A stretch of DNA of 64,000 nucleotides, from sequence record MT446416.1. One strand, written 5' to 3'. A model generated the notes under the pieces. That model was not told where the DNA came from, did not search any database, and saw nothing but the letters and a program-made list of their open reading frames with translations. Shown here in pieces: positions 7,383 to 53,725 of this stretch. The translations under genes were made by a program, and so were the position numbers. Every line of letters begins with the position of its first letter. The first letter of the stretch is position 1. This stretch comes from Escherichia virus TH47.

Positions 7383-7859
7383 TCAGTACTGTTTAAGTTC
7401 TGAACTGAAGATAAAGGAATCCATATCTTCTAGTGTTAACTTCAAGTCCGGTGTGTACTTTAATATCACACATTCAGGTTTCTTAATGGCAGCTTGATAG
7501 GCAGCAATTGCCAACTGTTGAAGCTGCTCTGGTGTGTAGTTCATGCGTTCTGCATTGAATACGATGTTGTTAATATCACCACCTGGCAGCTTCTCAAACT
7601 CACGCATAACAGCAGCCATCACATCATCAGATGTATTCTTATAAGCCCAATGAGGTAGTTGCATAACATCATAAATCTCGCCATTGTCGTTCATAAGAGA
7701 GATCCATTTTTTACCGTCCGATGAACTAAACAGACGACCTTTAATAGCAATGTTCTCTACCAAATTAACAAAGGCAAATATGTCTTGCTCATTTAGTTCA
7801 ATGCTATTAACGTTAATCCAACCCATACTACATCTCCAGTTATAAATCACGAACGACAT
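7383..7859 (-). CDS. hypothetical protein (158 aa)
   Basis: ORF in gene series. Confidence 0.5.
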   Translation of the reverse strand: MSFVIYNWRCSMGWINVNSIELNEQDIFAFVNLVENIAIKGRLFSSSDGKKWISLMNDNGEIYDVMQLPHWAYKNTSDDVMAAVMREFEKLPGGDINNIVFNAERMNYTPEQLQQLAIAAYQAAIKKPECVILKYTPDLKLTLEDMDSFIFSSELKQY

Positions 7860-8412
7860 TCATTAAACACAATTTGGGCTTTATCGCATTCAAAACCCAT
7901 ATGCATTCTTTGTAAGTTGCTATTATAGCATCTAAATGCTCAGTTACAATGCTTTCTTGAAAATATTCTTCTTCATTGAGTTTTGCTAAATTAGTCACAT
8001 CACATGTAGGTACTATAGGTCTGGATTGTACACCCATTCCATTATTGATATTGGTAAAATGTAAAAAATTGTACTTCACCACACCGTTATCTACACTTAT
8101 GATGCATGTCAAATGTTCCAACTCAGTTAGTTCGGTATTACAAGTGACATGAATGAATCCAGCATTATAGGCTCTATAATCATCTACTAATATCTCAAAA
8201 TCATTACGTTCAAATATAAGTGAAATGAGTTTGTCTTGTGGTTTAACCTTCTGAAATTTTACCGAATTTACGTATGATACTTTAATCTTAGATGAAATTA
8301 TCTTTTTACTAAGTGCAGTTAATTCTTCTTTAGCCTTAAAAGTTAAAGTTATAGGTCTAAATCTAGAACTTTTGTTCTTCTTTGATACTTTGAACTTACC
8401 TTTTCTATTCAT
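7840..8412 (-). CDS. FQxS-motif paralog family member (190 aa)
   Basis: C-terminal EEEYFQESIVTEHL matches the family motif. Confidence 0.5.
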   Translation of the reverse strand: MNRKGKFKVSKKNKSSRFRPITLTFKAKEELTALSKKIISSKIKVSYVNSVKFQKVKPQDKLISLIFERNDFEILVDDYRAYNAGFIHVTCNTELTELEHLTCIISVDNGVVKYNFLHFTNINNGMGVQSRPIVPTCDVTNLAKLNEEEYFQESIVTEHLDAIIATYKECIWVLNAIKPKLCLMNVVRDL

Positions 8413-8466
8413 TAATTAAACCCCACATAAAGTAAAAGGGATGGCATATTACCAACCCTATATCTT

Positions 8467-8718
8467 TTATTTTTTAATAGATTCATAAAGCAGAAACAAC
8501 CAAATAAACATTGATGAACAAACTACTACTGGGATTAATGTAAATTCAGTAAAGAATAAAAGTATTCCATAAGTTAGTATGCAACATAAGTTTACGTACA
8601 TAATTGCTTCTGCATTTTTATTTTTCATTTTATATGCAATGAATGTTGGTGACCACATTACCAAAAATGCAAACAACGCACATATGATGATTACAGTTTC
8701 CATATTACACCTCCGCAA
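8467..8718 (-). CDS. small membrane protein (83 aa)
   Basis: Two hydrophobic segments; likely start at METVII. Confidence 0.45.
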   Translation of the reverse strand: MRRCNMETVIIICALFAFLVMWSPTFIAYKMKNKNAEAIMYVNLCCILTYGILLFFTEFTLIPVVVCSSMFIWLFLLYESIKK

Positions 8719-8774
8719 AATAATGTTCTGTACTGCTATTATTTACAGAGAATATCTAAAAAAATTGATCTAGA

Positions 8775-8999
8775 TCAATTTTTAGTCACTTTACAATTTG
8801 AATCTTTTTTGTACTGAACAATCACATTGTTCTTAAGGAAGATGATGGTCCCATAGGAACCTTGGGCTGCAACTTCAACAATATGGTTCTTATATGTTTC
8901 AGTATACCCTTCCATCTCGTTGATACACACTACATGATACTTTGGTTTAGCACATACAACAGTACTCAAGAATAGCAGTACTAGTACTAGATATTTCAT
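8775..8999 (-). CDS. small secreted protein (74 aa)
   Basis: Signal-like N-terminus MKYLVLVLLFLSTVVCA. Confidence 0.5.
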   Translation of the reverse strand: MKYLVLVLLFLSTVVCAKPKYHVVCINEMEGYTETYKNHIVEVAAQGSYGTIIFLKNNVIVQYKKDSNCKVTKN

Positions 9000-9015
9000 T
9001 TTATTACCTTATAAA

Positions 9016-9047
9016 CAAGAACAGGAATCCTTTTACGGATTCCTATA
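9016..9047 (-). terminator. putative terminator hairpin
   Basis: aggaatcc-ttttac-ggattcct inverted repeat just past the stop of 9050..9343. Confidence 0.35.
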
Positions 9048-9049
9048 AT

Positions 9050-9343
9050 TTAGTCCTTTAATGTACCATTGTGTAAACGATTATACACATCATTGCGACG
9101 CAACGCAACAATATCTTCAGCGTACTTCATTGTAAACGCCCATGCTTTTGGATGCACATTAAGCTTCATACGAATGCGATTCTTCATCAATTCACCGCTT
9201 AGGCGAACAAACTCATGAACACCACGACTTCCGTACTCTGAAATCAAATCATTGATGTACATGTTGCGAAGGGTTTCGTCTGTACATTCTTTAACCATTT
9301 CTACGTCTGCCACGATGCTTGCATTTACTGAAGTACTGATCAT
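9050..9343 (-). CDS. hypothetical protein (97 aa)
   Basis: ORF in gene series. Confidence 0.5.
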   Translation of the reverse strand: MISTSVNASIVADVEMVKECTDETLRNMYINDLISEYGSRGVHEFVRLSGELMKNRIRMKLNVHPKAWAFTMKYAEDIVALRRNDVYNRLHNGTLKD

Positions 9344-9355
9344 TTTTAAGTTACC

Positions 9356-9622: not shown

Positions 9623-9636
9623 GATTATCCTCTAAG

Positions 9637-10414: not shown

Positions 10415-10451
10415 AATTAAAATCCCCAGTATTTGATGAAATAATTATAAC

Positions 10452-13594: not shown

Positions 13595-13816
13595 TCATTC
13601 TCCATCATATTCTGTGAGTATTACACTATGTACTGTTTCAACATAGCGTTGTGTTTTTGGTGTGTTGTACTTAGTTACTTCATCAAACAATTTAAATAGA
13701 GCATGTGTGGGGCTTAATGCACGAACAAATACATCAATCTTCTGAACTTCTTTCTTATAACCACGTACATTATTAAACTCAGATACATGCTCATAAACAA
13801 TGTAGTAACGATTCAT
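13595..13816 (-). CDS. hypothetical protein (73 aa)
   Basis: ORF in gene series. Confidence 0.45.
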   Translation of the reverse strand: MNRYYIVYEHVSEFNNVRGYKKEVQKIDVFVRALSPTHALFKLFDEVTKYNTPKTQRYVETVHSVILTEYDGE

Positions 13817-14328
13817 ATATTAAGTAGTTCCATAAATTCATCGATCAAGGAAGTTCTAATGCACATAACAAATTCAAAATCAACATCGATAGTATCGAGT
13901 AGTTTGAACAACTTTGGTACATTTGGATCATTCAACTGGAAGTTATGAATCAAGCTCTGTTGAAACACACTTTCTTCAGTACTGTAATCAATAACAAAAT
14001 ATTCAGCTACACCTGGTGGTGAATAAACATCATATAATATCTGACGTTTATTGTGTGTTTCTGAACCAGGACAATATATAAGTTCTATTTCATACGAACC
14101 TGCCGAGGATCTATCATAAAACACAATTTCAGTACTGATTATTTCACTACCATCACTACGTTCATAAAAACATACATCGGCATATCGTTTACCATTGGGC
14201 TTCAAAATCTCATGAGTTGTTTTACCATAACATTTATCAGTTTCAATGTGAATTTTGTCTTGATATTCAGAACGTCTTACATCATTTCCACGATTAAACA
14301 ATAAGATTAACAACTCATTAATATCCAT
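13813..14328 (-). CDS. FQxS-motif paralog family member (171 aa)
   Basis: Contains STEESVFQQSLIHNF near the C-terminus. Confidence 0.5.
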   Translation of the reverse strand: MDINELLILLFNRGNDVRRSEYQDKIHIETDKCYGKTTHEILKPNGKRYADVCFYERSDGSEIISTEIVFYDRSSAGSYEIELIYCPGSETHNKRQILYDVYSPPGVAEYFVIDYSTEESVFQQSLIHNFQLNDPNVPKLFKLLDTIDVDFEFVMCIRTSLIDEFMELLNI

Positions 14329-19280: not shown

Positions 19281-20246
19281 TTAAAAATCTTCGAACTCAT
19301 AACCTTTTGTCTTAACCATCTTACGCAGTCGTTCCATTGCTTCAGAGTACTTACGGTGCAATGAAGAACGAGCAGTCATGACCTTACCCTTCTCATCTTC
19401 AAAACCACTCTCAATGATTTCTCGTAGCGTTTCTGGTTCAGAATAAGAACCAATACCATGTACACGTTCAATCAATTCACGGTCTTTGGCAGATAGGTTA
19501 CTCATCATTTCTGCAATACTTTGTACCAGTGGGGTACTGACAGTTTCTACGCCTAAGTTGTAATCAGGTTCAACTGAAGTAACAATGTCAGATAATGTAC
19601 TTTCTGAATCATTACTCATTTTCATATTCAATGCTACATAAGTGTTATTGTAAGTTAGACAATTCTTAACGTGTTGAATCTCAATACCAGTCTCTTTTGA
19701 CACCATCTCAGGAGTTGGGTATTTACCATGTTTCCTTTGATACTCTTCAACACAACGTTTCACATAAATGTTATTAACACTCATATAACGTGGGAAATGC
19801 ACTAGATAATTAGCATCTGCACTTTCGTTATAGATTGTCATGTACACAGTTGTTGTTGCATATGTAATGAACTTAACATTTTTGGTAGTGTCGAACGTAT
19901 GAATTGCTCGCATTAAACCTTCAACACCATAAGAAATCTTATCTTCAAATGGGATAAAACATGTACATTTACGTGCAACACTTACTACCATTGGATAGTT
20001 GTAGCGAACCAAAAGGTCAATGTTCTTTTCAACGTCAATACCATCACGCACTGCTTGGATGAGCATTTCATTCGTTATACCTTTAGGGCGAGTTAAACTG
20101 ATACCTGTTTTTGGTTTCTCAAACTTGTGACCGTCATGTTCTTCTTCATCAACCGAATCTAGAGCCTCTAAGACGTTGACTTCTTCACTAGCAAAACACT
20201 CATCCAGTACTTCTTCAAAAATTGCATTTAAATCAAGCTTTTTCAC
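19281..20246 (-). CDS. sigma70-family RNA polymerase sigma factor (321 aa)
   Basis: Region 2-like LVRYNYPMVVSVARK...FITYATTTVYMTIYNE and region 4 HTH-like LSAKDRELIERVHGIGSYSEPETLREI...ERLRKM. Confidence 0.7.
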   Translation of the reverse strand: MKKLDLNAIFEEVLDECFASEEVNVLEALDSVDEEEHDGHKFEKPKTGISLTRPKGITNEMLIQAVRDGIDVEKNIDLLVRYNYPMVVSVARKCTCFIPFEDKISYGVEGLMRAIHTFDTTKNVKFITYATTTVYMTIYNESADANYLVHFPRYMSVNNIYVKRCVEEYQRKHGKYPTPEMVSKETGIEIQHVKNCLTYNNTYVALNMKMSNDSESTLSDIVTSVEPDYNLGVETVSTPLVQSIAEMMSNLSAKDRELIERVHGIGSYSEPETLREIIESGFEDEKGKVMTARSSLHRKYSEAMERLRKMVKTKGYEFEDF

Positions 20247-20268: not shown

Positions 20269-20766
20269 TCAAAAACGGTATACATTAATATTATCATCGG
20301 TATAGATATCATGGTTATGAACATCCATGAAGGTATCAAATACCTTATCAAGAAGAGTATTATACTCTTCATGTAATGCTGCATCAAGCATGTATTCACC
20401 ACCACTACCCATAAAGAATGTATAATCATTATGGAGATAATCAATCTTCTTGGTAAACTTACCCTTATTAATGATTAAGTGAATGATGTAATCTTTTGAC
20501 ACAAGAACACAGTGACAACTCGCCTTGCGGTCTGGTATCACAGTCTCTTGTGAAATCAAGTATCTCAGTACTTTGTTAATTTCACTAACCTCACCGCAAG
20601 CACTAAACAGTCGGTCGTGTACATACAATGTTTTTTGTGAAACTACACCATAACTAAGTTTTGGCTTCAACGGGAATAGGTTCAAAAATGAACGCTGCTC
20701 AGTTGATGTCACTTTTGAATCAGTAAGTAATACTCCCAAGCGTTTATCAATATAAACAGTTGTCAT
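20269..20766 (-). CDS. hypothetical protein (165 aa)
   Basis: ORF; preferred over the overlapping 20256..20444 frame. Confidence 0.5.
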   Translation of the reverse strand: MTTVYIDKRLGVLLTDSKVTSTEQRSFLNLFPLKPKLSYGVVSQKTLYVHDRLFSACGEVSEINKVLRYLISQETVIPDRKASCHCVLVSKDYIIHLIINKGKFTKKIDYLHNDYTFFMGSGGEYMLDAALHEEYNTLLDKVFDTFMDVHNHDIYTDDNINVYRF

Positions 20767-34733: not shown

Positions 34734-35126
<393 letters not shown>

Positions 35127-35518: not shown

Positions 35519-35893
<375 letters not shown>

Positions 35894-36465: not shown

Positions 36466-37004
<539 letters not shown>

Positions 37005-37712: not shown

Positions 37713-38687
37713 TTATTTAACGTGTTTCCATGATACACCTCTAATAGCTCTACTTATTTGCATTCTATGAACGCCAAACTTTTTTGCTAATGCGTCATAA
37801 CCAAATTCTTTATGTTTTGGTACAAATACTTTTCTACAGTATCTAACTATATCTTCAGTTAATTTGGAATTTGGTTGTTCATCACCTTTAAGATGATAAT
37901 CAGGGTTATTTATTTCTTTATATTCTGTACTTTCTTTTGCAGTCGCCCACATAAGATTGTCTAAATCATTATGTTCTTTATTACCATCTTTATGTATTAC
38001 GTATGGTTTGTTTTCGGGATTTGGTATAAAAGCCATTGCCATTACACGACTTATTTTAAATCCTATATGTTTGAATTCATCACCAACTTTTATTTTTGTT
38101 GCATGATATGGATTTCCATTACTTAGAGTCTGCTTTAATATTTTTCCAGTGCGTTTGCTGAATAAATTTCCATTATCACTAATAGAAAAATCATCCTCAA
38201 ATCCAATTACATCTTTAAATATTTCAGTTTCATTTTCTGGTGGTTCAAATGGTATTCGGTTTTTATAGTAATATGTATTTTTACAAGAAGTTCCGCAAAA
38301 TCCTTTTGACCTACTATCAGAAATTATTATTCTATTAGTACAGTTGATACATTTTGTTTCATATGGTACAAAGGGTTTATAATTTTCGTATTTTATATTA
38401 CTTCTTTCTAACATATGAATTCTAGCATGTTCAGATGCTGACAATATTTCAAGATTTTCTGGGGAATTATTTAATATATTTTCATCTATATGATGTACAT
38501 GTTCATCGGATGATAACCATCTACCTGCTGCAACTGCTGCAACATGTCTGTGATAATATACTCTCCCAGTTTTATGACACATGGGGTGTTCTTTATCCAT
38601 AAAATAAAGATAACCCTTATTAGTGCCGTGTAATTTTAATTGGTTTATTATACATACCAAAGTTCTCCGTAAGTTGTTGTTTCGCAT
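37713..38687 (-). CDS. two-module HNH homing endonuclease (324 aa)
   Basis: N-terminal HNH VHHIDENILNNSPENLEILSASEHARIH; second module FKDVIGFEDDFSISDNGNLFS plus VIHKDGNKEHNDLDNLMWAT. Confidence 0.7.
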   Translation of the reverse strand: MRNNNLRRTLVCIINQLKLHGTNKGYLYFMDKEHPMCHKTGRVYYHRHVAAVAAGRWLSSDEHVHHIDENILNNSPENLEILSASEHARIHMLERSNIKYENYKPFVPYETKCINCTNRIIISDSRSKGFCGTSCKNTYYYKNRIPFEPPENETEIFKDVIGFEDDFSISDNGNLFSKRTGKILKQTLSNGNPYHATKIKVGDEFKHIGFKISRVMAMAFIPNPENKPYVIHKDGNKEHNDLDNLMWATAKESTEYKEINNPDYHLKGDEQPNSKLTEDIVRYCRKVFVPKHKEFGYDALAKKFGVHRMQISRAIRGVSWKHVK

Positions 38688-39006: not shown

Positions 39007-39188
39007 CTTATTTTATCCATAACTGCTATACTAAAATATTTACCAAAATCATCACAATTGATAATGTTGTTATAGTACTCAATTGGGTTACGCAATGATA
39101 TATACAATTCAAGCTTAAAATAGTATATATCTGCTGCATTTATATTATAGTGTAGATTAAACCACTCATCAAATGTCTTAGGCTGCAT
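39003..39188 (-). CDS. hypothetical protein (61 aa)
   Basis: Small ORF. Confidence 0.4.
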   Translation of the reverse strand: MQPKTFDEWFNLHYNINAADIYYFKLELYISLRNPIEYYNNIINCDDFGKYFSIAVMDKIR

Positions 39189-39582
39189 TATATTTATCTT
39201 TATAAAAATCCATGATTTTAGTCAACAGTACTGCAATCGTATAATCTAAATCAGGATAAAGTAAATTGTACTGAAATTCTTCCTCTACACTATAGTTTGT
39301 GGTGCAGTACTGATAGTCTTTATAACCAATGGAAAAATGGTTAGGATACAATGTACAACGAAATCGATATGCTTCATCTGTCATATAATCATTGTATTCA
39401 ACACAGAAGTATAGTGATTTGGCATTTAATTCAATAAGCTCGACAAAACCATCAGGTAATGAATGGTTATAAATGACTGAATCTTCATTAAACCATTCAT
39501 AGTATTTTTCCAAAAAATCACTAATAGATACATCCAGACTTTGTATAGGTGGAGTAATGATAATTTGAACTTCGTTATTCAT
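39178..39582 (-). CDS. FQxS-motif paralog family member (134 aa)
   Basis: C-terminal SVEEEFQYNLLYPDL. Confidence 0.5.
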   Translation of the reverse strand: MNNEVQIIITPPIQSLDVSISDFLEKYYEWFNEDSVIYNHSLPDGFVELIELNAKSLYFCVEYNDYMTDEAYRFRCTLYPNHFSIGYKDYQYCTTNYSVEEEFQYNLLYPDLDYTIAVLLTKIMDFYKDKYNAA

Positions 39583-40127
39583 TTCGACCCCTTACTATAT
39601 TTCACGTATGGGCTATCATACAGATCATAACTTTTTTGTGCACGTTCTTTTCTACGTTCATACATGATTCTATCATACTCCTTGGCTTTCGCATTTGCTT
39701 CATTATACAATTTTAAAATTAGCAAAAATGTATCAAGGTCAGGATAGTTTGCTGGATTGATAGTACTCAGCATAAATCGTTCTTCTTCAGTTCTAGCTAA
39801 GTCAAACTCGTACTTAATAGTTTTATACCCACTCCATTTATATGTATGTGTTACTTTATTAGTAAGTACATTGTATCCAACGAAGTCAGTACTACCATCA
39901 AGTACACGAGTAATCATAATAGATGTACCAATGACAATCTGCACAGAACTCATTTCTGTAGTTTTAAAGTAATATATATTACCACGTCGCAGATTAACTT
40001 CTCGTGTCCCAACATGAACATGCTTAAGAACTTCACTTAATGGTTCTGGTACACCACGAATAGGCATATTAATGCTCCTTTTTAATTCTATACATTTTAA
40101 CAGCACTGGTTTCCCAAAAGTCACCAT
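39579..40127 (-). CDS. FQxS-like paralog with C-terminal extension (182 aa; Met variant)
   Basis: TEEERFMLSTINPANY. Confidence 0.45.
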   Translation of the reverse strand: MVTFGKPVLLKCIELKRSINMPIRGVPEPLSEVLKHVHVGTREVNLRRGNIYYFKTTEMSSVQIVIGTSIMITRVLDGSTDFVGYNVLTNKVTHTYKWSGYKTIKYEFDLARTEEERFMLSTINPANYPDLDTFLLILKLYNEANAKAKEYDRIMYERRKERAQKSYDLYDSPYVKYSKGSK

Positions 40128-40335: not shown

Positions 40336-40728
40336 TTACCAGCATGTTTTCATAACTTCTGTGATGTAAATCATTTTATCTTTTAGTTCATAAGGGATGC
40401 AAATTTCACCTGGGCTTAACGTTGTGTTCTTTTGAAACTCATCCTCTTCGGAATCAGCCAGGTAAAATGGGTGCGTCACAAAGTTATCATCAACTGGACG
40501 ATTATGTGGTTTCATTAATGCATCATGATTGACAAAATAATAAGCATCAATATCAGGACGGAAATACAAACAATCAACCTTAATGCACGGGTGTAACCAT
40601 AAGGACAAAGAATATGTTATTTGGTTACCAATTTGTCTTGGACCAGATGCAATTGTATTGATGTTATTTTTATCTTGTACCATTTCATAAATGAAATCTA
40701 TCATTTCACGTAGTTCAGATTCAGTCAT
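40336..40728 (-). CDS. FQxS-motif paralog family member (130 aa)
   Basis: C-terminal SEEDEFQKNTTLSPG. Confidence 0.5.
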   Translation of the reverse strand: MTESELREMIDFIYEMVQDKNNINTIASGPRQIGNQITYSLSLWLHPCIKVDCLYFRPDIDAYYFVNHDALMKPHNRPVDDNFVTHPFYLADSEEDEFQKNTTLSPGEICIPYELKDKMIYITEVMKTCW

Positions 40729-44976: not shown

Positions 44977-45120
44977 TTATTTCATACACTCACGTAGAAC
45001 AATCTTTTCAACTGAACCACCGAGTACTAGATAGTGAAAATTAGAATCTTTGTTTGCCATATTCAAAAGATCTGCTTTCTGTTGAAGCGTAAAGCGTGAA
45101 GTACTGTTACGTACTGGCAT
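44977..45120 (-). CDS. small hypothetical protein (47 aa), not in track
   Basis: Hand translation MPVRNSTSRFTLQQKADLLNMANKDSNFHYLVLGGSVEKIVLRECMK; aaggag SD upstream. Confidence 0.4.
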   Translation of the reverse strand: MPVRNSTSRFTLQQKADLLNMANKDSNFHYLVLGGSVEKIVLRECMK

Positions 45121-45122
45121 AG

Positions 45123-45566
45123 TTACTCCTTAAAGTAGATATCACGAATTTGCTTAATCATCTCTAACTCTTGAAGTCCTATCATACCGAAGTTTTCTTG
45201 CACTGTCAACTGTTGGAAGTACATTTCCTCTAAATTATTATAAGGAATATCCACTAATGATAAAGGAACACTTTCACCACGGTATAGCAGATCTTCAACG
45301 AAAAGTTTTAAAATCATGATAGAAAATGAATCTTTTTGGATATGAAATTTGTAAAATGTTTGGTTAGTGCTGAGCATTGTATTTGATGGATTGAACCCCA
45401 TTTCAACAAATACTGTATCTTTATCATTATGTTTGAAATATGTACATCTTGAATTCGCAAGAACTTTAGATTTTGGGAAATAAAAATCACCCATCATCTT
45501 CTGTCGTTTCCAGTCCTCATATACAACTGGATGCTTTACCTTCTTCAATTGGTGCAGTACTGTCAT
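45123..45566 (-). CDS. FQxS-motif paralog family member (147 aa)
   Basis: C-terminal NLEEMYFQQLTVQEN. Confidence 0.5.
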   Translation of the reverse strand: MTVLHQLKKVKHPVVYEDWKRQKMMGDFYFPKSKVLANSRCTYFKHNDKDTVFVEMGFNPSNTMLSTNQTFYKFHIQKDSFSIMILKLFVEDLLYRGESVPLSLVDIPYNNLEEMYFQQLTVQENFGMIGLQELEMIKQIRDIYFKE

Positions 45567-45946
45567 AGTTTTTTCCAGTCCAATGAATCGAAATCGATTT
45601 GTTCAGGATTATCAACAGCGACAACTCGTGCATTATGAAGAGTTTCAAAGTAGCCGTTCCACGGTGTTCGTAATGGAACAGTCACATCGCCAACTTTAAC
45701 CAAGAATGAATATTCTGGTGATATTGGGTCAAACCACTCTTTTTGTTTAGCATTTTCTATGATAGTTTCGTGTTCATTTGTATAGCAATTAGATTGCTTC
45801 ATATAAAACACCCAATGCTCTTTTAAGCACTGTAAAGCAGCCACTGCTTCCTCTTTAGAAGACCATTGAATATCAATTGTATTAAGAACGTCATAATAAT
45901 TTTCAGTATCACCTGTAGTGTAATGTACTTCAATGCAGTATTTCAT
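45563..45946 (-). CDS. hypothetical protein (127 aa)
   Basis: ORF in gene series. Confidence 0.5.
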   Translation of the reverse strand: MKYCIEVHYTTGDTENYYDVLNTIDIQWSSKEEAVAALQCLKEHWVFYMKQSNCYTNEHETIIENAKQKEWFDPISPEYSFLVKVGDVTVPLRTPWNGYFETLHNARVVAVDNPEQIDFDSLDWKKL

Positions 45947-46401
45947 TATTCATCACCTTTTAGTAATTTACAAATTTCAATCATATGATAATAACATGTA
46001 TTCCAAAATTGCCCATTAGTACTACCAACATCATGCACAGTACTTTGTTGGAAAACATATTCATCATTGAACAACTTTTTAATATCATCAATGTAAAATT
46101 CTGGTTTTGAATCATTATTGTATTCAATACTCGTTTCACCATCTGGATCAAGTGAAATTGATGATATATCGTGAATGCCTATCGGATTTGTTGGATAAAT
46201 TCTCAACGTAAGAGGATAGAAGTCTGGATCGGTTTCATATGTATATTCGATTATGTAATTACCATCTCCAGTAATTGATTGATATTTAAATGTAGTTTCA
46301 ATTGAATTTGAGATGTTAAATCCCAGTCTCTTTATCTCATGTAGATGTAATAATATTTTATGTAAAGTTCCTAAAACATGAATCAAATTATCAATTTTCA
46401 T
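45946..46401 (-). CDS. FQxS-motif paralog family member (151 aa)
   Basis: C-terminal NDEYVFQQSTVHDV. Confidence 0.5.
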   Translation of the reverse strand: MKIDNLIHVLGTLHKILLHLHEIKRLGFNISNSIETTFKYQSITGDGNYIIEYTYETDPDFYPLTLRIYPTNPIGIHDISSISLDPDGETSIEYNNDSKPEFYIDDIKKLFNDEYVFQQSTVHDVGSTNGQFWNTCYYHMIEICKLLKGDE

Positions 46402-46940
46402 TTACGGTCCTTTGAAAAGTTCAGTTTAAAAGTTTTACCAAATTCCATTGTAGCTTTACCCAGATTGTTAATATTTTCTTTCAACATTTCTTGCATCTTC
46501 CTAATACTTTCATTCCAGGCTTCTTCTTCTTTGCGGAGGATTGGTCGCAATCGTTCCTGAATATCGTTAAAACGTGTATTGAGTTCAACCAATGATTCAT
46601 ATGTGAAATCTTTCATATCGATGATAGTACTACGTTGAAAGAATTCTTCTTCGGATAAATTACTCAAAATGATTTTATCACTACCAATAGATAATGTCAA
46701 TTCATCATCTTGATTTTTTTTAATTACAATACGTACAGGTGATTTTATAGTAATGTGAACATCATGATTATTAAAAGTTTCAGTTTTGTTTGACGTTCTG
46801 AATTGTAGTCTTCCGGTTAGTGCGTGTACTGGCATTGGTTTCTTTTTACCAGTAATAACATCTTCCCACGAATCAAGGATATTATTAATAATTTTAACAT
46901 AAGGAACTGTCATATATGCACCTATGAAAAATCCACGCAT
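46398..46940 (-). CDS. FQxS-motif paralog with C-terminal extension (180 aa)
   Basis: SEEEFFQRSTIIDM. Confidence 0.5.
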   Translation of the reverse strand: MRGFFIGAYMTVPYVKIINNILDSWEDVITGKKKPMPVHALTGRLQFRTSNKTETFNNHDVHITIKSPVRIVIKKNQDDELTLSIGSDKIILSNLSEEEFFQRSTIIDMKDFTYESLVELNTRFNDIQERLRPILRKEEEAWNESIRKMQEMLKENINNLGKATMEFGKTFKLNFSKDRK

Positions 46941-46955
46941 AGCGTGGATCTGTAA

Positions 46956-47486
46956 TTAATCGAGTATAGTAACTTCAATCAAACGAATTTCGATGAATTC
47001 GTTTTCAGTTTCCCATGATGAACCTAATTTCTTATTAAGTTCAGTTTTAACATCACTTTTAAATTTTCCCATAGTATTAGGAATAATTTGTTTGGTTAGT
47101 TTGTCATAACCACAATAAAACATAGGTTTCTCCCTTCGAGATATTAGAACAACAAAATCCTTTGGATATGCAGGTATATTATGCATCACTTCATGAATGC
47201 ACTCAGTACTTGAATCTTGTACTTTGTACATTACATTAAGTTTACCTTTGAAAGTGCTAATCATATCAACAATAATACCTTTACCAGATTTAAGTAAAGT
47301 TCCATTCTTTGTATGAGAACAATAGAATACCTCATCACCAATATTAGGATAGTACAAATTAAATTCTAATTCTTCCTTTGATGACTGACGTTGAAATTTC
47401 ATTACACGTTCAGTATAGGTGGGGTAGTTCTTCATGTTCAAAAGAATATCTCTCGTAGTAAGTGTGATATAACTGGCATAGTCCAT
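46956..47486 (-). CDS. hypothetical protein (176 aa as listed; start probably internal Met near 47435)
   Basis: Annotated start overlaps the methyltransferase gene by 49 nt. Confidence 0.5.
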   Translation of the reverse strand: MDYASYITLTTRDILLNMKNYPTYTERVMKFQRQSSKEELEFNLYYPNIGDEVFYCSHTKNGTLLKSGKGIIVDMISTFKGKLNVMYKVQDSSTECIHEVMHNIPAYPKDFVVLISRREKPMFYCGYDKLTKQIIPNTMGKFKSDVKTELNKKLGSSWETENEFIEIRLIEVTILD

Positions 47487-49327
47487 CCATTCCCAAGCAT
47501 TTTATATGCTTGTGTCTTACTAGACACTTTAAAGAAATCTTCAGGAACGCCCTGTAATTTACAACATTCTACTACACTTAAGTGTCTATAGTCAATATTT
47601 CTTTTACCATTCTCTAATAGATATTGACGATTAATCATTGGGTCACGAAACACCAATTGTCGTCTTGATTTATTAAAGTACTGGTTGCAATCACCACCCT
47701 TAAAATAGTTAGCATCTATACAGTACGAAGCGGTCCTGTCAGTGTACCAACCATCTTCAATGATATCTTGAAGTTTAGGGGCATTTGATAATGCAGGTGG
47801 TATAAAAAGCTTATCAGTACTGCACCAGTAGTATCTCTGCCTGAAGTGAGGCGTATAATGCTGGGAATTTATCAGTACTGGTGTCATCTCAAGAACACTA
47901 TTAATATATTGCTTGAAATCTTCTTTCATTTTAACATTCTCGAACAGTACTTTCAAGTCTGGATTGAGACTTTTTATGTGCTCATAAATGTCAACCATTG
48001 TATGAAACAACATTCCACGCGGATCATTTATTCCACCCTGTTTACCTGCAACAGACCAAGATTGACAATTGTGCACAACTATGTTATTTGCGGTATATGT
48101 ATTGTCAACGGCAACTTCAAAATTATATACGGTTTTCCATTCACCTGTCGAAATACTTGTTTTTATACCTTTAACCCATGAATAATTTTCGTCATAAAAA
48201 GCTTCCTCTTTTTTGGGTTTGTCTTTTTTATATGATAAAACATAATACGGTTTTTGGTTTACAATTCGTCCCTCAATAACTTTAGTTTTTTCTGGTTCGG
48301 TAAGGCTTATGTTGGAATGTCTTCCGTAAACGTTCATTATTAATTGTTGGACACCTAATACACAGTCTATTGATGTTGTAGTGAATTTATAACAATTACT
48401 ATCAATATGACCATCTGCATCAAAATATCCATCAAGGAATGCTTTTTGGTTCTGTACACATTCATTGAATAAATCGGGATGAACTTTCTTATTAGATGCA
48501 CCTTTACCCATTTGTTCACAGAATTCAACGAGTTCTTTTGAACATATATAAAATTTATATGATGTTCTTTCTTTGACATAATTATATTTCATGTTCATAC
48601 CTTCAAAACACGAAATCAATTCATCAAATTCATCATGTGCACAACAGATGAAAACTCTATACTGGTAACTATTCTTTCTATTATTACGCTTTACTTTATA
48701 AGTCCATCCGTCACCCATAAAGCGTCCCATAAAATACCAGAATTTTTCATCTTTTGATGATTTACTAGATTCAATTGATTTAACATTACAAAGAAAATGT
48801 TCAGATGTTAATTCGTGTGCCTCAACCCATTCAGGTTCAGTGAAGGATCGTTCAGATTGTCTAATTCTGTTATTCCAGCTAGACGACATTTTTCTAGCAT
48901 AAAATGGATGATTATCAGTGCATTCAATTGGGATATGACCTTGACCAGTTATAATACGGGTTGGTGCTTTTTTAACACCTGTACTCAATACTGGATGATA
49001 TTGTCCAGTATGTGTTAGTACCATGTCACCAACTTGAATGTCTTTAATGTCTTTATGACCTTTATCGGTCATTATCATTGTTCCTTCCGTGAAGCACGGG
49101 AACCCTCCCATGAGAAGGTCAATTTTATCCCACTCAATATCCCATTCTCTCCATTTAGTTACATCACCCAATTGGGTGATATCAGGAAAGTTAGCTTGAG
49201 ATTCAGCTATTGCGTACTTGTCAATTTCGGATGAATAATATTTTTCAACAGGGATACCAGCATCTTTTAATGCCATGTATCCCACACTCATCCCATTAAA
49301 AAGAGATAGTACTCGGATAGGTTTCAT
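47438..49327 (-). CDS. C5-cytosine DNA methyltransferase precursor containing an intein (629 aa)
   Basis: MTase motifs LSLFNGMSVG (I), GGFP-[intein]-CQSWSVAGK (PCQ, IV), LFENV (VI), RQRYY, MLGNGW (X); the extein sequence is contiguous only after removing residues 78-420. Confidence 0.75.
   Translation of the reverse strand: MKPIRVLSLFNGMSVGYMALKDAGIPVEKYYSSEIDKYAIAESQANFPDITQLGDVTKWREWDIEWDKIDLLMGGFPCFTEGTMIMTDKGHKDIKDIQVGDMVLTHTGQYHPVLSTGVKKAPTRIITGQGHIPIECTDNHPFYARKMSSSWNNRIRQSERSFTEPEWVEAHELTSEHFLCNVKSIESSKSSKDEKFWYFMGRFMGDGWTYKVKRNNRKNSYQYRVFICCAHDEFDELISCFEGMNMKYNYVKERTSYKFYICSKELVEFCEQMGKGASNKKVHPDLFNECVQNQKAFLDGYFDADGHIDSNCYKFTTTSIDCVLGVQQLIMNVYGRHSNISLTEPEKTKVIEGRIVNQKPYYVLSYKKDKPKKEEAFYDENYSWVKGIKTSISTGEWKTVYNFEVAVDNTYTANNIVVHNCQSWSVAGKQGGINDPRGMLFHTMVDIYEHIKSLNPDLKVLFENVKMKEDFKQYINSVLEMTPVLINSQHYTPHFRQRYYWCSTDKLFIPPALSNAPKLQDIIEDGWYTDRTASYCIDANYFKGGDCNQYFNKSRRQLVFRDPMINRQYLLENGKRNIDYRHLSVVECCKLQGVPEDFFKVSSKTQAYKMLGNGWTMPVISHLLREIFF
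48068..49096 (-). mobile_element. LAGLIDADG homing-endonuclease intein (about 343 aa) inserted at the catalytic Cys of the methyltransferase
   Basis: Insert begins CFTEGTMIM, ends NIVVHN followed by Cys; LAGLIDADG-like blocks FMGRFMGDGW and FLDGYFDADGHI. Confidence 0.7.
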
Positions 49328-49379
49328 ATAAAATCCTTTTTATATTGTTAAGGTACTATAATATATTATAGCATCTTAT

Positions 49380-49670
49380 TTAGAAATCTCCCAAACTTTT
49401 TTCATCACACCATCGTGATGTGCAGATGATTGCAGATGCCAAAATTGAAGCACTTGCTCGGCCTCCACCGAGTAAGTACTGGCTAATGACACCAATCATA
49501 TTGAAGACTTTATCATACTCAGCAAGGAGTTCGAAATCCTTCTTCCAACATTGATATTCTTCTTCAGTAACATTAAACTCATCACCAAGTTCATTTAAAA
49601 TCTTTTTTAGTACTGCACGATGTTCACTCATCGGATTCCCCATATCGTTCGTCGTAAAAATCATCATCAC
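49380..49670 (-). CDS. hypothetical protein (96 aa)
   Basis: ORF in gene series. Confidence 0.5.
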   Translation of the reverse strand: MMMIFTTNDMGNPMSEHRAVLKKILNELGDEFNVTEEEYQCWKKDFELLAEYDKVFNMIGVISQYLLGGGRASASILASAIICTSRWCDEKSLGDF

Positions 49671-49709
49671 GGTCCAACGGTTCTTTTGGTTTTTCTGTCA
49701 TATATTTCC

Positions 49710-49970
49710 TCACATGGTAAATGTATTATCACCATCCATATCTTCATCTGTAGCTTCAGCTAAGGTCTTAATCGTCAATAATTCACGCTTCACGTACAAC
49801 ATGAAGACCTTTTCATAATTACCAAACATCATCTCAGGTGACATGTAATTCTCCGTTACAATGACGATTGGGCGGCCCTGTGACAGCATACGAAACATAG
49901 TACGGTATTTGTCAAAGGTGCGAAATTCATCCATGTTCATCATGTGGCGTTTACGAACTACTTTAGTCAT
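49710..49970 (-). CDS. hypothetical protein (86 aa)
   Basis: ORF in gene series. Confidence 0.45.
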   Translation of the reverse strand: MTKVVRKRHMMNMDEFRTFDKYRTMFRMLSQGRPIVIVTENYMSPEMMFGNYEKVFMLYVKRELLTIKTLAEATDEDMDGDNTFTM

Positions 49971-49984
49971 TTTGATACCTTTAG

Positions 49985-50440
49985 TTAATTGAACTCGATT
50001 TCTGGATAATGATTATAGAACATCTCACGTACTGCGTCAAGCTGTTCTTTAAATTTCTCAATGTCATCAAGAGTTAGTACAGTATCACTAACAGTACTCA
50101 ACTGAAAAAGTGTCTCTTCAGTACTGTTTTCTGATAAATCAAATGTACATGATGAATCATCTGATATAATATTATCACATATTTCAAATGTGTCAATATG
50201 AACATCATTGAGTAGATCACCACTATAATCATTATATATGAACACAAAAATGTATGATGGTTTTTTTATCTCAGTTTCTGACTCATAGGCTACCAAATCA
50301 TATGTAACGTAACATTTAAAGTCAGGTGAATCGTATTCCATAGATACAATTCCTATATCACGATATTGATTCGTTTCACTGATTAAATCCGGTATAGGTG
50401 TAATACCAAGTAAATGAAAAAACTGTCCTGGATTTAGCAT
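49985..50440 (-). CDS. FQxS-motif paralog family member (151 aa)
   Basis: C-terminal STEETLFQLSTVSDT. Confidence 0.5.
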   Translation of the reverse strand: MLNPGQFFHLLGITPIPDLISETNQYRDIGIVSMEYDSPDFKCYVTYDLVAYESETEIKKPSYIFVFIYNDYSGDLLNDVHIDTFEICDNIISDDSSCTFDLSENSTEETLFQLSTVSDTVLTLDDIEKFKEQLDAVREMFYNHYPEIEFN

Positions 50441-50889
50441 TTGATTACCTTCGGGTTTTGCTCTGTGATATCAAACATAGATAGAACGAAATCATTTAGC
50501 TTTTCAACACAATTGATTATAGTGCTTAAATCAGAATAACTAACTGTTAAATTTTTAACAAGAGATTCCTGAAAGTATCCTTCTTCAGTTGAGCAATAAC
50601 TCACATTTGAGATAGTCTCATAATGTATATCTTTGCTTGTTTTACATGTTATAATTTCTATTATATCCGATGTTGTGTTATATAATAATATAAATGTTGT
50701 TGTTCGTGAATTCTTATTGTAAAATGCGAGTTCTGTGCTGTCATATGTTTTCTCAATAAGAACATTGTACTCTTCCGAAAATGATGTGGAAATTCTAATT
50801 ATCTCTTCTGGATCAGGAACATAAGAGCCATCAAATTTACAAGACAATGCAATTTCAAAATGATTTTTTATTTCATCAATTTTCATCAT
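50434..50889 (-). CDS. FQxS-motif paralog family member (151 aa)
   Basis: C-terminal STEEGYFQESLVKNL. Confidence 0.5.
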   Translation of the reverse strand: MMKIDEIKNHFEIALSCKFDGSYVPDPEEIIRISTSFSEEYNVLIEKTYDSTELAFYNKNSRTTTFILLYNTTSDIIEIITCKTSKDIHYETISNVSYCSTEEGYFQESLVKNLTVSYSDLSTIINCVEKLNDFVLSMFDITEQNPKVIKC

Positions 50890-51281
50890 AGCTCACCATT
50901 TAATTTGCTATTTACATATTCTAATGCTTTTTTAGCAATGCCAATTTCGGTAACTCCTATTACATTTTTCTCGATTAACGACAATTGAAATAGTTCATCT
51001 TCATCAATATCAATACTATGGGTTCTTGACCAATAATAATTGAAGTCATATGCATATCGTATTGTATTTTCTTTAATATCAAGTACCAATATGACCATAC
51101 CATCGTGTAGGTATGTCAGTGTTTTTCCGTATATATTAAAAATTAACCTATCTGGTGTACCCAATGGAAGATGAATTATATTTTGTGTAGTTCCAACAAT
51201 AACAAAATCATTATCTATATTTTTATTCAAGTCACCTAGAATGTCATATATAGTAGTCATGTTAATCTTGACCCTCAGCAT
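50886..51281 (-). CDS. FQxS-motif paralog family member (131 aa)
   Basis: C-terminal DEDELFQLSLIEKN. Confidence 0.5.
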   Translation of the reverse strand: MLRVKINMTTIYDILGDLNKNIDNDFVIVGTTQNIIHLPLGTPDRLIFNIYGKTLTYLHDGMVILVLDIKENTIRYAYDFNYYWSRTHSIDIDEDELFQLSLIEKNVIGVTEIGIAKKALEYVNSKLNGEL

Positions 51282-51666
51282 TTCTGATGATTCGCATTAC
51301 TTCTCTGGATAGGTCGAATACTTTTTTATAGTACTCAAATGTAACTGAACCAAAATCATTAACAGTACTATCCATGAAGAACGATTCTTCGGTGCAATAC
51401 ACACCTGTAATTGAAACATGCTCTTGATGGAATTTAGCATCTTTCCAGTAACGGAATTCGAAAATAAATTGCCCGTCATGACCAACCCTACAACACTCGG
51501 CACGGTCACTGTCTACACAGCTAATCACAATATCCCTCTCGGAGTCATACCAGATATTTCCAATATTTGTTTCAATAACTGCATAATCAATTTTTGTAGA
51601 ATTGGGAATTAAACCTTTTTTTACCAGTACTAGACTGGTATTATCAATATCCAGAAAACTTACCAT
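51262..51666 (-). CDS. FQxS-motif paralog family member (134 aa; Met variant)
   Basis: C-terminal TEESFFMDSTVNDF. Confidence 0.5.
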   Translation of the reverse strand: MVSFLDIDNTSLVLVKKGLIPNSTKIDYAVIETNIGNIWYDSERDIVISCVDSDRAECCRVGHDGQFIFEFRYWKDAKFHQEHVSITGVYCTEESFFMDSTVNDFGSVTFEYYKKVFDLSREVMRIIRNAEGQD

Positions 51667-51667
51667 A

Positions 51668-52078
51668 TCAACTCCCCACTATTACTGTGTTTTTAATTTC
51701 TAACAATTCACTATACATCTTCTTCAATTGTACAATATCTTCATATAAAATACCACCCATATCATCAATCAAAGAACGTTGAAATAGTGATTCATCTGAC
51801 TGTATTGTGTCCAAATCAGAAATTTTCAAAACTGTATCTGGGTTTAGTGTGTTTACAATAAGTTTGTTTGTGTATGGTACGTATGTGATCTTGATATTCA
51901 TTTCTGAATCAAGGGCATACAACCTCAAAACTGACAAATCACCACAAAGTTGGATTTTTGGTTCATCAAACTCATCAGACCACCACATAGTACTAGTCAT
52001 ATAATTGACGTGTTGGTTCAAATGTGATATATCCAAATCGAAATAATATTTTAGTTCATTGTGTAAATCTAAACTCAT
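51668..52078 (-). CDS. FQxS-motif paralog family member (136 aa)
   Basis: C-terminal SDESLFQRSLIDDM. Confidence 0.5.
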   Translation of the reverse strand: MSLDLHNELKYYFDLDISHLNQHVNYMTSTMWWSDEFDEPKIQLCGDLSVLRLYALDSEMNIKITYVPYTNKLIVNTLNPDTVLKISDLDTIQSDESLFQRSLIDDMGGILYEDIVQLKKMYSELLEIKNTVIVGS

Positions 52079-52133
52079 AAATTTATCCTCTATGCATCAT
52101 TATCTTACATTGTAGGATAAACCCACGATAATG

Positions 52134-52529
52134 TCAAGATGTGAATTGCTTATACCAGTGATACAATTCTTTTAATTCTTCAGTACTGAATAGAACATCT
52201 TCAATCGTTGTTTGTTGGAAGTGGTAATCTTCGTTTAAGTACATTGAAATATTTTTATATACTTTTCGATTACATTTTCCAAGAAACGATGTTCTTTTGG
52301 ATGTGTATTCAATAAATGTTAACTTATCTAATTCTATATCCAATGACAATTTAGTACAGTATTCAGTATCATCTACGTACATAAGTTTATTTGAATAACA
52401 ATCAACTGTGATATATTCTTTATGTGAGAATTGATATATACCATTAAATTTTTTACCATTTGTACTTCTGAATTTTTCAAGGTAATAAGATAGTGGTTTA
52501 GATATTGTACTACCAATAGTATTATTCAT
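52134..52529 (-). CDS. FQxS-motif paralog family member (131 aa)
   Basis: C-terminal NEDYHFQQTTIEDV. Confidence 0.5.
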   Translation of the reverse strand: MNNTIGSTISKPLSYYLEKFRSTNGKKFNGIYQFSHKEYITVDCYSNKLMYVDDTEYCTKLSLDIELDKLTFIEYTSKRTSFLGKCNRKVYKNISMYLNEDYHFQQTTIEDVLFSTEELKELYHWYKQFTS

Positions 52530-52691
52530 AGAACCTCAAAATTTAGACAAGAAAAATGCCCCGAAGATCGGGGCAGTACGAAAAAGATTTTGTACAAAAA
52601 AGGGGAATAATACAATCAAATAAAATGATAACGTATCATTATTATGTAAGGGAGGAAAGTAACATGATAATGTTAACCATTGCTGGTATAA

Positions 52692-53243
52692 TTATTTATC
52701 ATTTAATTCTTTTAATTGAGCTTGTATATCACCAGAAAGTTTGCGGATTTTCTTGAAACAGTACACGCTATCATCAAGTTCAAGTTCTAGACCGTGAGTG
52801 ATTGCATAAAGCATTTCAGCAAGCACTAGATCCTGACGCATCCAGTTACCATTCTTATAGGTTGTCATTACACAATACGGACAGTGGCTGTTTCCGGTTT
52901 GTTTACCCAGGAATACAGATTGGATTGTATCATGCTTGAAACCTACAAAAGATTGGTTGATCTTATTGATTTCAGCTACAACGTCCATTTGTGCACCAGT
53001 GTTAATTGCAAACACTTCATCACCGTTCTCGGTTTTGTTGATGTTTAGTTCAATATCACTACCAAGTTTACGAACAGCCAATGTATAAAGTAGGATTTCA
53101 TACATATCATAATTAGTTGTTTCGCCATTTGGTGCAGTTACATCGAGACTAACACCATGCATTTTTACTTCAGTACTGAATCCATCTTTATCTGCTAGAA
53201 AATCAGTGATTTGTTCAGTTAGGATTTTAATTTGGTCAATCAT
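52692..53243 (-). CDS. hypothetical protein (183 aa)
   Basis: ORF in gene series; contains HCPYC. Confidence 0.55.
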   Translation of the reverse strand: MIDQIKILTEQITDFLADKDGFSTEVKMHGVSLDVTAPNGETTNYDMYEILLYTLAVRKLGSDIELNINKTENGDEVFAINTGAQMDVVAEINKINQSFVGFKHDTIQSVFLGKQTGNSHCPYCVMTTYKNGNWMRQDLVLAEMLYAITHGLELELDDSVYCFKKIRKLSGDIQAQLKELNDK

Positions 53244-53261
53244 TATTCATATCCTTATGTT

Positions 53262-53291
53262 GGAAAAGCCCCCATTACGGAGGCTTTTTAA
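53262..53291 (-). terminator. rho-independent terminator
   Basis: aaaagcccccattacggaggcttttta hairpin past the stop of 53297..53725. Confidence 0.45.
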
Positions 53292-53296
53292 TCTAA

Positions 53297-53725
53297 TTAT
53301 AGGGAAGCTTCGTATTCAGCTACAATGTCAACCATCTCATTGACAAAGTTGATGTGGTCATGAGTTACTGTGCGGAAATCATAAACCAGTGATTGTTGGA
53401 AGAATACGTCTTCAGCCAGATTACCTTCAAAGTTCAGGTCGATGTTTTCTTCATCGTTGGTCGGAGCAACTTTGATATTTAGTTGATTTTCATCAACAAC
53501 CAATTTCACAACACAACCCAATGCAATCGCCAGTACATAAGCAGGTTTCTTCGCCGCTTCAGAACGGAATGGAGCACGTAGAGCACAAATGGTGCTGCTA
53601 ATCTCATCATTCTGTTCTTTATATTTAACGTTAATCATCAGTTCTTCAATTTTGACGCTCTCGATTACACGACCAGTTTCAGCAGCGAAGAAAGAGTGGT
53701 TACGGATAGTTTGTTCGATATTCAT
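53297..53725 (-). CDS. FQxS-motif paralog family member (142 aa)
   Basis: C-terminal AEDVFFQQSLVYDF. Confidence 0.5.
   Translation of the reverse strand: MNIEQTIRNHSFFAAETGRVIESVKIEELMINVKYKEQNDEISSTICALRAPFRSEAAKKPAYVLAIALGCVVKLVVDENQLNIKVAPTNDEENIDLNFEGNLAEDVFFQQSLVYDFRTVTHDHINFVNEMVDIVAEYEASL

Follow-up and report, generated by a model that had tools for sequence, protein, structure and literature searches.

Terminal multigene families that act in host range and immune evasion are known from African swine fever virus (ASFV; MGF110, MGF360 and MGF505) and from the poxviruses (ankyrin/PRANC and BTB-kelch families). Ocr, Arn, Ugi and the anti-CRISPRs are small acidic early cytoplasmic proteins that act by binding a host protein. 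Arrays of small tandem paralogs have been described in jumbo phages as well: Bacillus phage G carries a zinc-ribbon family of ~35 copies, an expansion called 'unprecedented' in a survey that does not mention the family reported here (Iyer et al., 2021; PMC7824862), and phage 121Q carries an array of '>30 very similar genes', both of unknown function. Here we describe a family of small paralogous proteins, referred to as the FQ family after its C-terminal sequence motif, of which 22 members are encoded in a 64,000-nucleotide (64-kb) stretch of Escherichia virus TH47 (sequence record MT446416.1), hereafter called the window.

The FQ family shares with the phage G and 121Q arrays the small size of its proteins, the tandem arrangement, the unknown function and the jumbo-phage host genome. 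It differs from them in protein family and fold and, with 72 members in the close relative fEgEco12 (PP777464, 374.7 kb), is about twice as large; in contrast to 'very similar' arrays, its copies are ancient, are 10-35% identical and are common to several phage genera. The paper on phage RaK2 states that ~10% of the gene products are paralogues, with nothing further on paralogy, and the literature on 121Q, PBECO4, RaK2, CBB, phAPEC6 and Sharanji, together with jumbo-phage reviews, was found to hold generic remarks on paralogy only. By analogy, the FQ family resembles the ASFV and poxvirus families, which likewise consist of dozens of diverged, non-structural paralogs near both ends of a linear genome and may likewise combine a conserved module with variable surfaces. 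However, folds and hosts are unrelated, and the likeness is a hypothesis on role, not evidence for it.

Our overall reading, to which we assign a probability of roughly 0.55, is that the FQ family is an undescribed single-domain family of RaK2-like jumbo phages whose copies are diversified early host-binding proteins. In a 350-kb phage, roughly every eighth gene falls into this one family, for which we found neither a database name nor a description in the literature. It accounts for a sizeable share of the 'dark matter' to which these genomes owe their jumbo size, and at least 155 sequence clusters can now be defined by a single profile, fold and motif. Positions 45000-54000 of the window share 96.6% identity with Escherichia phage BF17 and 87% with 121Q; the source is a jumbo coliphage of the 121Q/PBECO4 type, genus Asteriusvirus, within the RaK2-like group. 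The guanine plus cytosine content of the window is 31-39%, and nearly every gene lies on the minus strand.

Diverged paralogs and their predicted fold

An earlier note on this DNA had proposed an expanded family of about 22 small proteins with a shared motif near the C-terminus and had listed 21 motif strings. All 21 are present in minus-strand open reading frames (ORFs) where the note had placed them or implied them to be, and a hidden Markov model (HMM) added a 22nd copy (29621-30097). The count of about 22 thus holds, but for the window only; the close relative has 72 copies per genome, roughly threefold the number in the window. The lengths of 118-190 amino acids (aa) were right for longest-ORF calls, the rule by which starts were set here; four starts are probably over-extended, as judged from PHROG and GenBank starts (28790-29260, 29621-30097, 39579-40127 and 46398-46940). 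The motif had been placed 20-45 residues from the C-terminus, which is true of 19 of the 22 copies, while over all copies the F-Q pair is found at 28-80 residues (median 35.5). Replacement of Gln by Met, mentioned as occasional, occurs in three copies, and in one copy Phe is replaced by Met.

A regular expression for the motif matched 22 of the 162 minus-strand ORFs of the window and none of the 96 plus-strand ORFs; these matches comprise 21 members and one unrelated N-terminal match at 24326-24910. Residue shuffles (500) gave a mean of 0.77 motif ORFs and a maximum of 4, which rules out a chance motif. The codons at motif positions vary synonymously (AGY or TCN for Ser, TTT or TTC for Phe, CAA or CAG for Gln). 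Since the differences include the two Ser codon blocks, conservation acts on the protein and not on a DNA element, and a repeat or regulatory site within the genes is ruled out.

Pairwise BLASTP detected links for some pairs of members only. Leave-one-out profiles, in which the family profile lacks the scored copy, ranked 20 of the 22 members first when built from the window copies alone. An independent profile was built from 67 copies of another genomic block (block A) of fEgEco12 and RaK2, none of them orthologous to genes of the window. With this block-A HMM the 22 members were the top 22 of 258 ORFs, 21 of them at E<0.01, and the alignments covered most of each protein. Because an independent profile of 67 copies ranks all 22 on top, they form one protein family beyond a shared peptide, and on these sequence comparisons the 22 ORFs are diverged paralogs, as had been proposed.

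An alignment of 72 sequences has conserved columns beyond the motif. Those on its N-terminal side are a Tyr, [YF][ILV]x[YF], a [DN] and an Asp, and amphipathic patterns mark the N-terminal helix and the second C-terminal helix. The N-terminal regions have diverged strongly, as the earlier note had it, yet they share one fold in which these positions are kept. The family is not a named domain: no member scored above the gathering threshold in Pfam, NCBIfam or PADLOC, and searches of PDB sequences gave nothing meaningful. Weak single matches (HobA, gasdermin and others) were not common to the members. In PHROGs, each of the 10 members scanned is in its own family, function unknown.

The fold was predicted for one paralog, 31119-31535, with AlphaFold2 (AF2) from an alignment of 107 paralogs and orthologs. 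The model reached a predicted local distance difference test score (pLDDT) of 81.9 and a predicted template modelling score (pTM) of 0.78; it has a helix at residues 5-14, strands at 23-25, 29-37, 42-44, 51-58, 61-68, 71-78 and 84-91, and helices at 98-107 and 115-125. The family domain is predicted to span ~110-130 aa and to consist of an N-terminal helix followed by an antiparallel beta-meander of seven strands and a pair of C-terminal helices. An earlier AF2 run on 51668-52078 with the 22 paralogs only showed the same order of elements at a pLDDT of 58.8 and was left out of the fold searches. Independently computed models in BFVD, for paralogs from Asteriusvirus, RaK2, GAP32, CBB and an Erwinia phage, agreed with this one: the paralog matches of highest significance, seven in all, had template modelling (TM) scores of 0.51-0.65 (E<=6.7e-3, 13-21% identity), and the other named matches were weaker (TM 0.36-0.48, 12-18% identity).

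In the model, the first of the long C-terminal helices (98-107) has the motif T97-E-E-K-F-F-Q-Y-C-L-V107 as its N-cap and body, and the motif lies within the sequence blocks of highest confidence (mean pLDDT 94-95). The family motif, [ST]-E-E-x-x-F-Q-x-S-[LT]-[VI]-x-D, is accordingly modelled as the N-cap and buried face of this helix, and the conserved columns fall on core positions of helices and strands, on a hairpin turn (D60) and on helix caps. Among 40 orthologs of 31119-31535, entropy was highest in the hairpins (38-40, 55-61, 70-86) and lowest in the motif helix. The motif helix is the most constrained element, and the beta-hairpins are free to vary.

The motif recalls 3C/TEV-like protease sites (ExxYxQ|S-like), with Glu at P6, an aromatic residue at P2 and Gln at P1, and could on this ground be processed after F-Q. 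The earlier note had given a common fold or a binding motif no lower odds than a cleavage site, a view favoured by the model, where a helix predicted with confidence and for the most part buried contains the motif. An N-cap and buried helix face argue against a protease site: F, L/T and V/I face the predicted core and are not presented in an extended accessible linker. Furthermore, the P1 Gln is Met in three copies, and P1' shows no constraint (E, Q, D, L, Y, K, M, R), with the conserved Ser at P2'. The scanned ORFs of the window include no chymotrypsin-like cysteine protease, nor do the proteases annotated in fEgEco12, all of them ClpP-like or of the S77 prohead type. Cleavage at the motif is therefore extremely improbable. 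Two genes of the window were rejected as candidates for a cognate protease. Public annotation calls the orthologs of the first, next to the sigma factor (20269-20766, minus strand), 'HslV protease subunit' and those of the second (59025-59714, minus strand) 'peptidase/metallopeptidase', and neither name is supported: the first has no Pfam or PDB sequence match, and the second matches an Rv2179c-like 3'-5' exoribonuclease domain (3.4e-9).

In the p32 fold a single N-terminal helix precedes seven antiparallel strands, and two helices follow at the C-terminus; the protein assembles into an acidic, doughnut-shaped homotrimer. The AF2 model shows the same order of elements as p32/gC1qBP/Mam33/kinetoplastid p22 (PF02330), and the proteins are similarly acidic, with a median isoelectric point (pI) of 4.8 for the 72 members vs 6.4 for neighbouring ORFs. 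In Foldseek searches of solved structures p22 and p32 came out on top at non-significant values (E 0.04-0.5), and p32/MAM33, an acidic protein that binds multiple ligands, is the nearest fold among these. None of the 22 members had a MAM33 Pfam match even at E<=0.1, and family profiles did not retrieve p32 from PDB sequences. Because the sequence signal is nil and the structural scores are too low, we claim no homology to p32. Further weak fold neighbours include AcrF1 and an Rhs immunity protein (TriTu). The resemblance to p32 raises the question of whether the proteins serve the phage itself and not the binding of host targets, as acidic p32/MAM33-like chaperones or as nucleic-acid mimics that would, for instance, handle basic DNA-binding or condensation proteins. 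Apart from the weak structural likeness and the missing Pfam signal, ~70 diverged copies are hard to square with a housekeeping chaperone, and the genes lie among early accessory genes driven by host promoters and not in replication or structural modules. We consider this explanation unlikely.

Copy number and distribution in RaK2-like phages

Member counts rest on an iterated profile at E<1e-3. In fEgEco12, of which all but 5 kb inside the tail-fibre gene was scanned, the 72 members comprise 45 in block A (27.3-55.8 kb), 19 in the equivalent of the 28.8-53.7-kb part of the window (block B) and 8 scattered copies. By genome position the arrays lie at 27-56 kb and 275-297 kb, and the two blocks adjoin the two terminal repeats of the linear genome. 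No member was found in the structural modules, the replication modules or the terminal repeat of this phage. Together, the members amount to 11,076 codons, ~9% of the unique genome and ~12% of the genes.

In 121Q, all 20 of 20 members of the window block have one-to-one orthologs in the same order, with 45-95% protein identity. Klebsiella phage RaK2 (Alcyoneusvirus) has 14 members downstream of TelA, in synteny with the window, and 26 in a second block, that is, at least 40 in the part scanned, and at least 4 are present in the single scanned region of Pectobacterium phage CBB (Mimasvirus). BFVD fold matches extend the family to GAP32 and Erwinia phage pEa_SNUABM_47. These distances exceed the reach of pairwise searches: tblastn with single members or the family consensus returned Asteriusvirus matches only, a homologous-protein search with alignments returned orthologs of 8 paralogs only, and the RaK2 and CBB relatives were reached only by profile scans of syntenic DNA.

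An exhaustive HMMER scan of 1.84 billion cluster representatives yielded 155 clusters at E<=1e-3, all of 62-249 aa. Among 141 new representatives, 112 were less than 40% identical to any copy in hand, and nearly all carried [TS]EExxFQxS[TL][VI]. Those looked up came from metagenome assemblies, on contigs of up to 366 kb. One metagenomic contig of 113 kb has 16 members within 20 kb around an intein-bearing Dcm gene, an arrangement that corresponds to the RaK2-like synteny.

Two other arrays of fEgEco12 adjoin or enclose FQ-family genes. A second, unrelated tandem family (L005 21091-27280) directly borders the larger FQ-family block on its upstream side; it comprises ~30 consecutive genes for proteins of 65-94 aa with an 'LGTNYQE-Y' motif and is the array of ~70-aa 'LGTNYQE' proteins of the 121Q type. 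On the opposite strand, ~16 paralogous genes for ~370-aa proteins are annotated as 'chromosome condensation regulator / DNA condensation protein' (L002 27157-45491), several phAPEC6 counterparts of which are listed in the virion proteome; an FQ-family member of 216 aa (28359-29009) is situated inside this array.

Selection, expression and proposed role

The ratio of nonsynonymous to synonymous substitution rates (dN/dS) between the window and 121Q had a median of 0.24 for the family and was below 0.7 in 19 of 20 family genes, the sole copy with a value near 1 being 35515-35871 (1.16, at low dS). For 42 non-family neighbours the median was lower (0.11; Mann-Whitney p=0.002). The family genes are under purifying selection with relaxed constraint. 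The higher ratio relative to the neighbours speaks for inert filler, that is, for duplicates kept only because a head-full packaging 'ratchet' tolerates extra DNA, and tandem duplication has been proposed as a route to jumbo genome size (Hua et al. 2017; PMC5646251). However, every copy keeps an intact ORF and the motif, dN/dS stays well below 1 across genera, the 20 one-to-one orthologs of 121Q have been retained despite the divergence of their proteins, and the family persists in RaK2, CBB and uncultured relatives, all of which makes filler very unlikely.

The proteins are mostly acidic (pI 4.05-4.9 in 17 of the 22 window copies), and no membrane-spanning segment was found in any of the 22 members. 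Sigma-70 promoters with at least 11 of 12 consensus positions number 37 on the coding strand of the window (ten of them 12/12) and 0 on the other, compared with 2.2 expected from shuffles. Examples on the minus strand are 44651-44623, 42791-42762, 37641-37614 and 25033-25006, and promoters are located 30-45 nt upstream of several members (29621-30097, 30767-31126, 35515-35871 and 51668-52078). The T4 late-promoter motif TATAAATA is depleted in the window (2 vs 10.9 expected). The whole window looks like an early region driven by host RNA polymerase. The density of sigma-70 promoters, by analogy with T4 early genes, would imply transcription by the unmodified host enzyme, and judging from the promoter consensus the family genes are probably transcribed early by the host sigma-70 RNA polymerase.

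Small, numerous and charged proteins of a T4-related phage could also be virion-internal or ejected, as are the T4 internal proteins, and a few small neighbouring ORFs are annotated as virion proteins. However, the part of the phAPEC6 virion proteome table that extends to gp277c has no entry between gp078c and gp149c, the interval that holds all window-equivalent members, and the 19 copies of the main array (block B; gp083c-gp134c) are absent from this part. The RaK2 record does not label any of the 14 syntenic members as virion structural, and the window is poor in T4-type late promoters. This partial evidence indicates that the family proteins are non-virion, and we give a virion location a very remote chance.

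The constrained motif helix, the variable hairpins and the probably early, non-virion character of the products are compatible with a role in host takeover. We propose, at slightly less than even odds and by analogy with the viral systems above, that each copy binds a different host protein via its variable surface and that the family forms an early host-takeover and counter-defence repertoire. The expansion is ancient, predates the split of Asteriusvirus and Alcyoneusvirus and has given rise to two arrays by both genome ends, with ~72 copies (~12% of genes) in Asteriusvirus. The products are soluble, mostly acidic and, on the partial evidence above, non-virion, and are probably made early by transcription with the host sigma-70 RNA polymerase. 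The variable sheet and loop surface of each copy may bind one host protein and thereby sequester, inhibit or redirect it; likely targets would be proteins that are basic or bind nucleic acids, defence or housekeeping factors for example, and the array as a whole would constitute a diversified repertoire for host takeover and counter-defence. Ocr, Arn, Ugi and the anti-CRISPRs differ in being single genes, compared with the ~70 members of the FQ family, and no significant structural or sequence match to them was obtained. If the copies are diversified binders of host proteins, they would represent a rich source of inhibitors of bacterial defence and housekeeping proteins and a natural experiment in the diversification of a viral scaffold.

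The same layout of a variable body and an invariant helix pair could instead belong to protease adaptors, in which the body binds a host target and the C-terminal helices dock on a phage Clp ATPase or ClpP for degradation. fEgEco12 encodes a ClpP (Pfam CLP_protease, 1.3e-41) and a second ClpP-like protein (L006 30543-31238 and 34170-34778) as well as a ClpA/B-type double-AAA ATPase of 762 aa (L011 12806-15094), which could be a protein-degradation machine owned by the phage; the second, weak ClpP-like protein is annotated as a head maturation protease. These genes are, however, distant from the arrays (~80 kb and ~168 kb in fEgEco12), the hydrophobic residues of the motif are predicted to be buried in the fold and not presented as a docking peptide, and family searches found no similarity to ClpS, MecA or SspB. 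Adaptors are thus decidedly unlikely. A report on Mrx6, which binds the Lon protease Pim1, refers to Mam33 many times, though not in its abstract, and is a lead, not evidence (PMC12802967; 2026, Nucleic Acids Research).

A more specific form of the repertoire would comprise ~40-70 diversified p32-like acidic binders, each for another host defence or nucleic-acid-binding protein, which may feed the phage ClpP/Clp ATPase. We regard this version as doubtful. If it were true, the FQ family would be the first phage counterpart of the terminal host-range families of ASFV and the poxviruses, and no larger paralog expansion would be known from any phage.

Several observations weigh against the interpretation of the FQ family as a single-domain family of diversified early host-binding proteins. 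When the 11-residue motif was masked in profiles of the 22 sequences, the N-terminal parts recovered none of the 22 members and the C-terminal parts recovered 5. From the 22 window sequences alone, evidence beyond the motif is thin, and because the motif-masked profiles fail, the sharing of a fold rests on the larger alignment and on the predicted structures. No gene-wide positive selection was seen in dN/dS between the window and 121Q. Since the orthology between these two is one-to-one, the arrays are stable and not rapidly turning over, and there is no classic arms-race signature. Three members are basic. Early transcription is predicted from matches to the promoter consensus, and we found no transcriptome for phages of this kind. 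The phAPEC6 table covers the proteins up to gp277c, and the comparison with its gene numbers covers block B but not the 45 copies of block A. Finally, the function is drawn from analogy, and the binding partners are putative.

Members and neighbouring genes in the window

All members lie on the minus strand, and E values refer to leave-one-out profiles unless the block-A HMM is named. The two copies closest to the start of the window stand apart from the array. The gene at 7840-8412 (190 aa; NEEEYFQESIV; block-A HMM E=1e-5), which has its own PHROG (33518, function unknown), carries a Lys-rich, basic N-terminal extension (pI 9.1), and 13813-14328 (171 aa; TEESVFQQSLI) was detected at E=1.7e-5, rank 1 (block-A HMM 3.6e-7).

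The array begins with 28790-29260 (TEEEHFMDSTV, Gln replaced by Met; E=1.9e-6), the start of which is probably near 29206. Its block-A HMM score is the lowest of the members (E=0.32), yet still at rank 22, and it is 66% identical to its 121Q ortholog with a dN/dS of 0.30. The next copy, 29208-29612 (134 aa; DEDMFFQLSTV; 9.7e-9), is missing from fEgEco12 and 57% identical to the 121Q ortholog; BLASTP links it with 29621-30097 and 31119-31535. The 22nd member, 29621-30097 (TEDMYMQLNFV, Phe replaced by Met), absent from the earlier list, was found by an HMM not trained on it (E=3.7e-5) and by the block-A HMM (7.3e-5); its likely start, around 30037, follows closely on a sigma-70 promoter (11/12) at 30117-30088. 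The copy at 30767-31126 (119 aa; TEESLFQYSMI; 5.7e-10), with an 11/12 promoter 45 nt upstream, is 35% identical to 31119-31535 over 99 aa (BLASTP, E=1e-13); the latter, of 138 aa with TEEKFFQYCLV, is the copy that was modelled.

Further along, 34734-35126 (130 aa) has a divergent motif, DEEDEFQKRTV (5.7e-5; block-A HMM 3e-4), and 35515-35871 (118 aa; TEEEYFQMSTV; 5.9e-8) has an 11/12 promoter 32 nt upstream. Two copies are probable members. The first, 39178-39582 (134 aa), has the weakest motif, SVEEEFQYNLL, and fails in the within-window leave-one-out (E=2.5) but is recovered by the 72-sequence HMM (6.7e-8) and the block-A HMM (7.3e-4, rank 17). The second, 40336-40728 (130 aa; SEEDEFQKNTT), is weak in leave-one-out (E=0.41) and ranks 18 with the block-A HMM (9.9e-4), with a dN/dS of 0.26. 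Between them, 39579-40127 (TEEERFMLSTI; 2.3e-5) probably starts 60 nt downstream of the longest-ORF call and has a basic C-terminal extension; its PHROG match covers residues 21-182.

The copies near 45-47 kb are 45123-45566 (147 aa; LEEMYFQQLTV; 2.6e-5), 45946-46401 (151 aa; NDEYVFQQSTV), which has the top block-A HMM score of the members (3.8e-8), and 46398-46940 (SEEEFFQRSTI; 2.8e-7 with both profiles), with a charged, helical C-terminal extension of 50 aa. A last run comprises 49985-50440 (151 aa; TEETLFQLSTV), the most acidic copy with a net charge of -24; 50434-50889 (151 aa; TEEGYFQESLV; block-A HMM 2e-7 over residues 15-133), just 49% identical to its 121Q ortholog; 50886-51281 (131 aa; DEDELFQLSLI; 7.1e-4, block-A HMM 1.3e-3); 51262-51666 (134 aa; TEESFFMDSTV, Gln replaced by Met; 1.2e-8); 51668-52078 (136 aa; SDESLFQRSLI), with an 11/12 promoter 30 nt upstream; 52134-52529 (131 aa; NEDYHFQQTTI; 1.2e-6); and 53297-53725 (142 aa; AEDVFFQQSLV; 2.7e-5, block-A HMM 9.5e-5).

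Transfer RNA (tRNA) genes and homing elements were correctly reported to lie amid the copies: there are four tRNAs at 32.0-37.1 kb, two HNH_3/NUMOD4 homing endonuclease ORFs among them (36466-36990 and 37713-38687, minus strand) and a Hint/LAGLIDADG intein (Hint_2 and LAGLIDADG_3) inside the gene for a cytosine methyltransferase (Dcm; 47438-49327, minus strand). Since the corresponding stretch of fEgEco12 and 121Q lacks HNH_3/NUMOD4 genes, these two ORFs are recent mobile insertions. The Dcm gene of fEgEco12, 121Q and phAPEC6 is 861 nt long and has no intein; the intein was found in JNE01, A4, UE-S1, ph0011 and the metagenomic RaK2-like contig (L013 5950-7842). Other landmarks are a sigma-70-like factor (19281-20246) and TelA (59796-61013).

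The sole long plus-strand gene of the window is 25027-26184. Its ortholog in 121Q (gp155) bears the annotation of a structural protein with an Ig domain, and that in phAPEC6 (gp077) was seen in virions with 10 peptides; the gene is a late structural gene of opposite orientation set within the early region. On the minus strand, the 394-aa product of 5624-6808 combines a CapR-homology domain (4.9e-16) with a zinc finger of the treble-clef type (DUF4379), and its neighbour 4051-5580 (509 aa), for which no family match was obtained, has a fEgEco12 counterpart annotated as a virion structural protein. Three small minus-strand ORFs between family copies (45563-45946, 46956-47486 and 52692-53243) lack the motif and are missed by the family profile; they are conserved in 121Q, with dN/dS values of 0.06-0.33.

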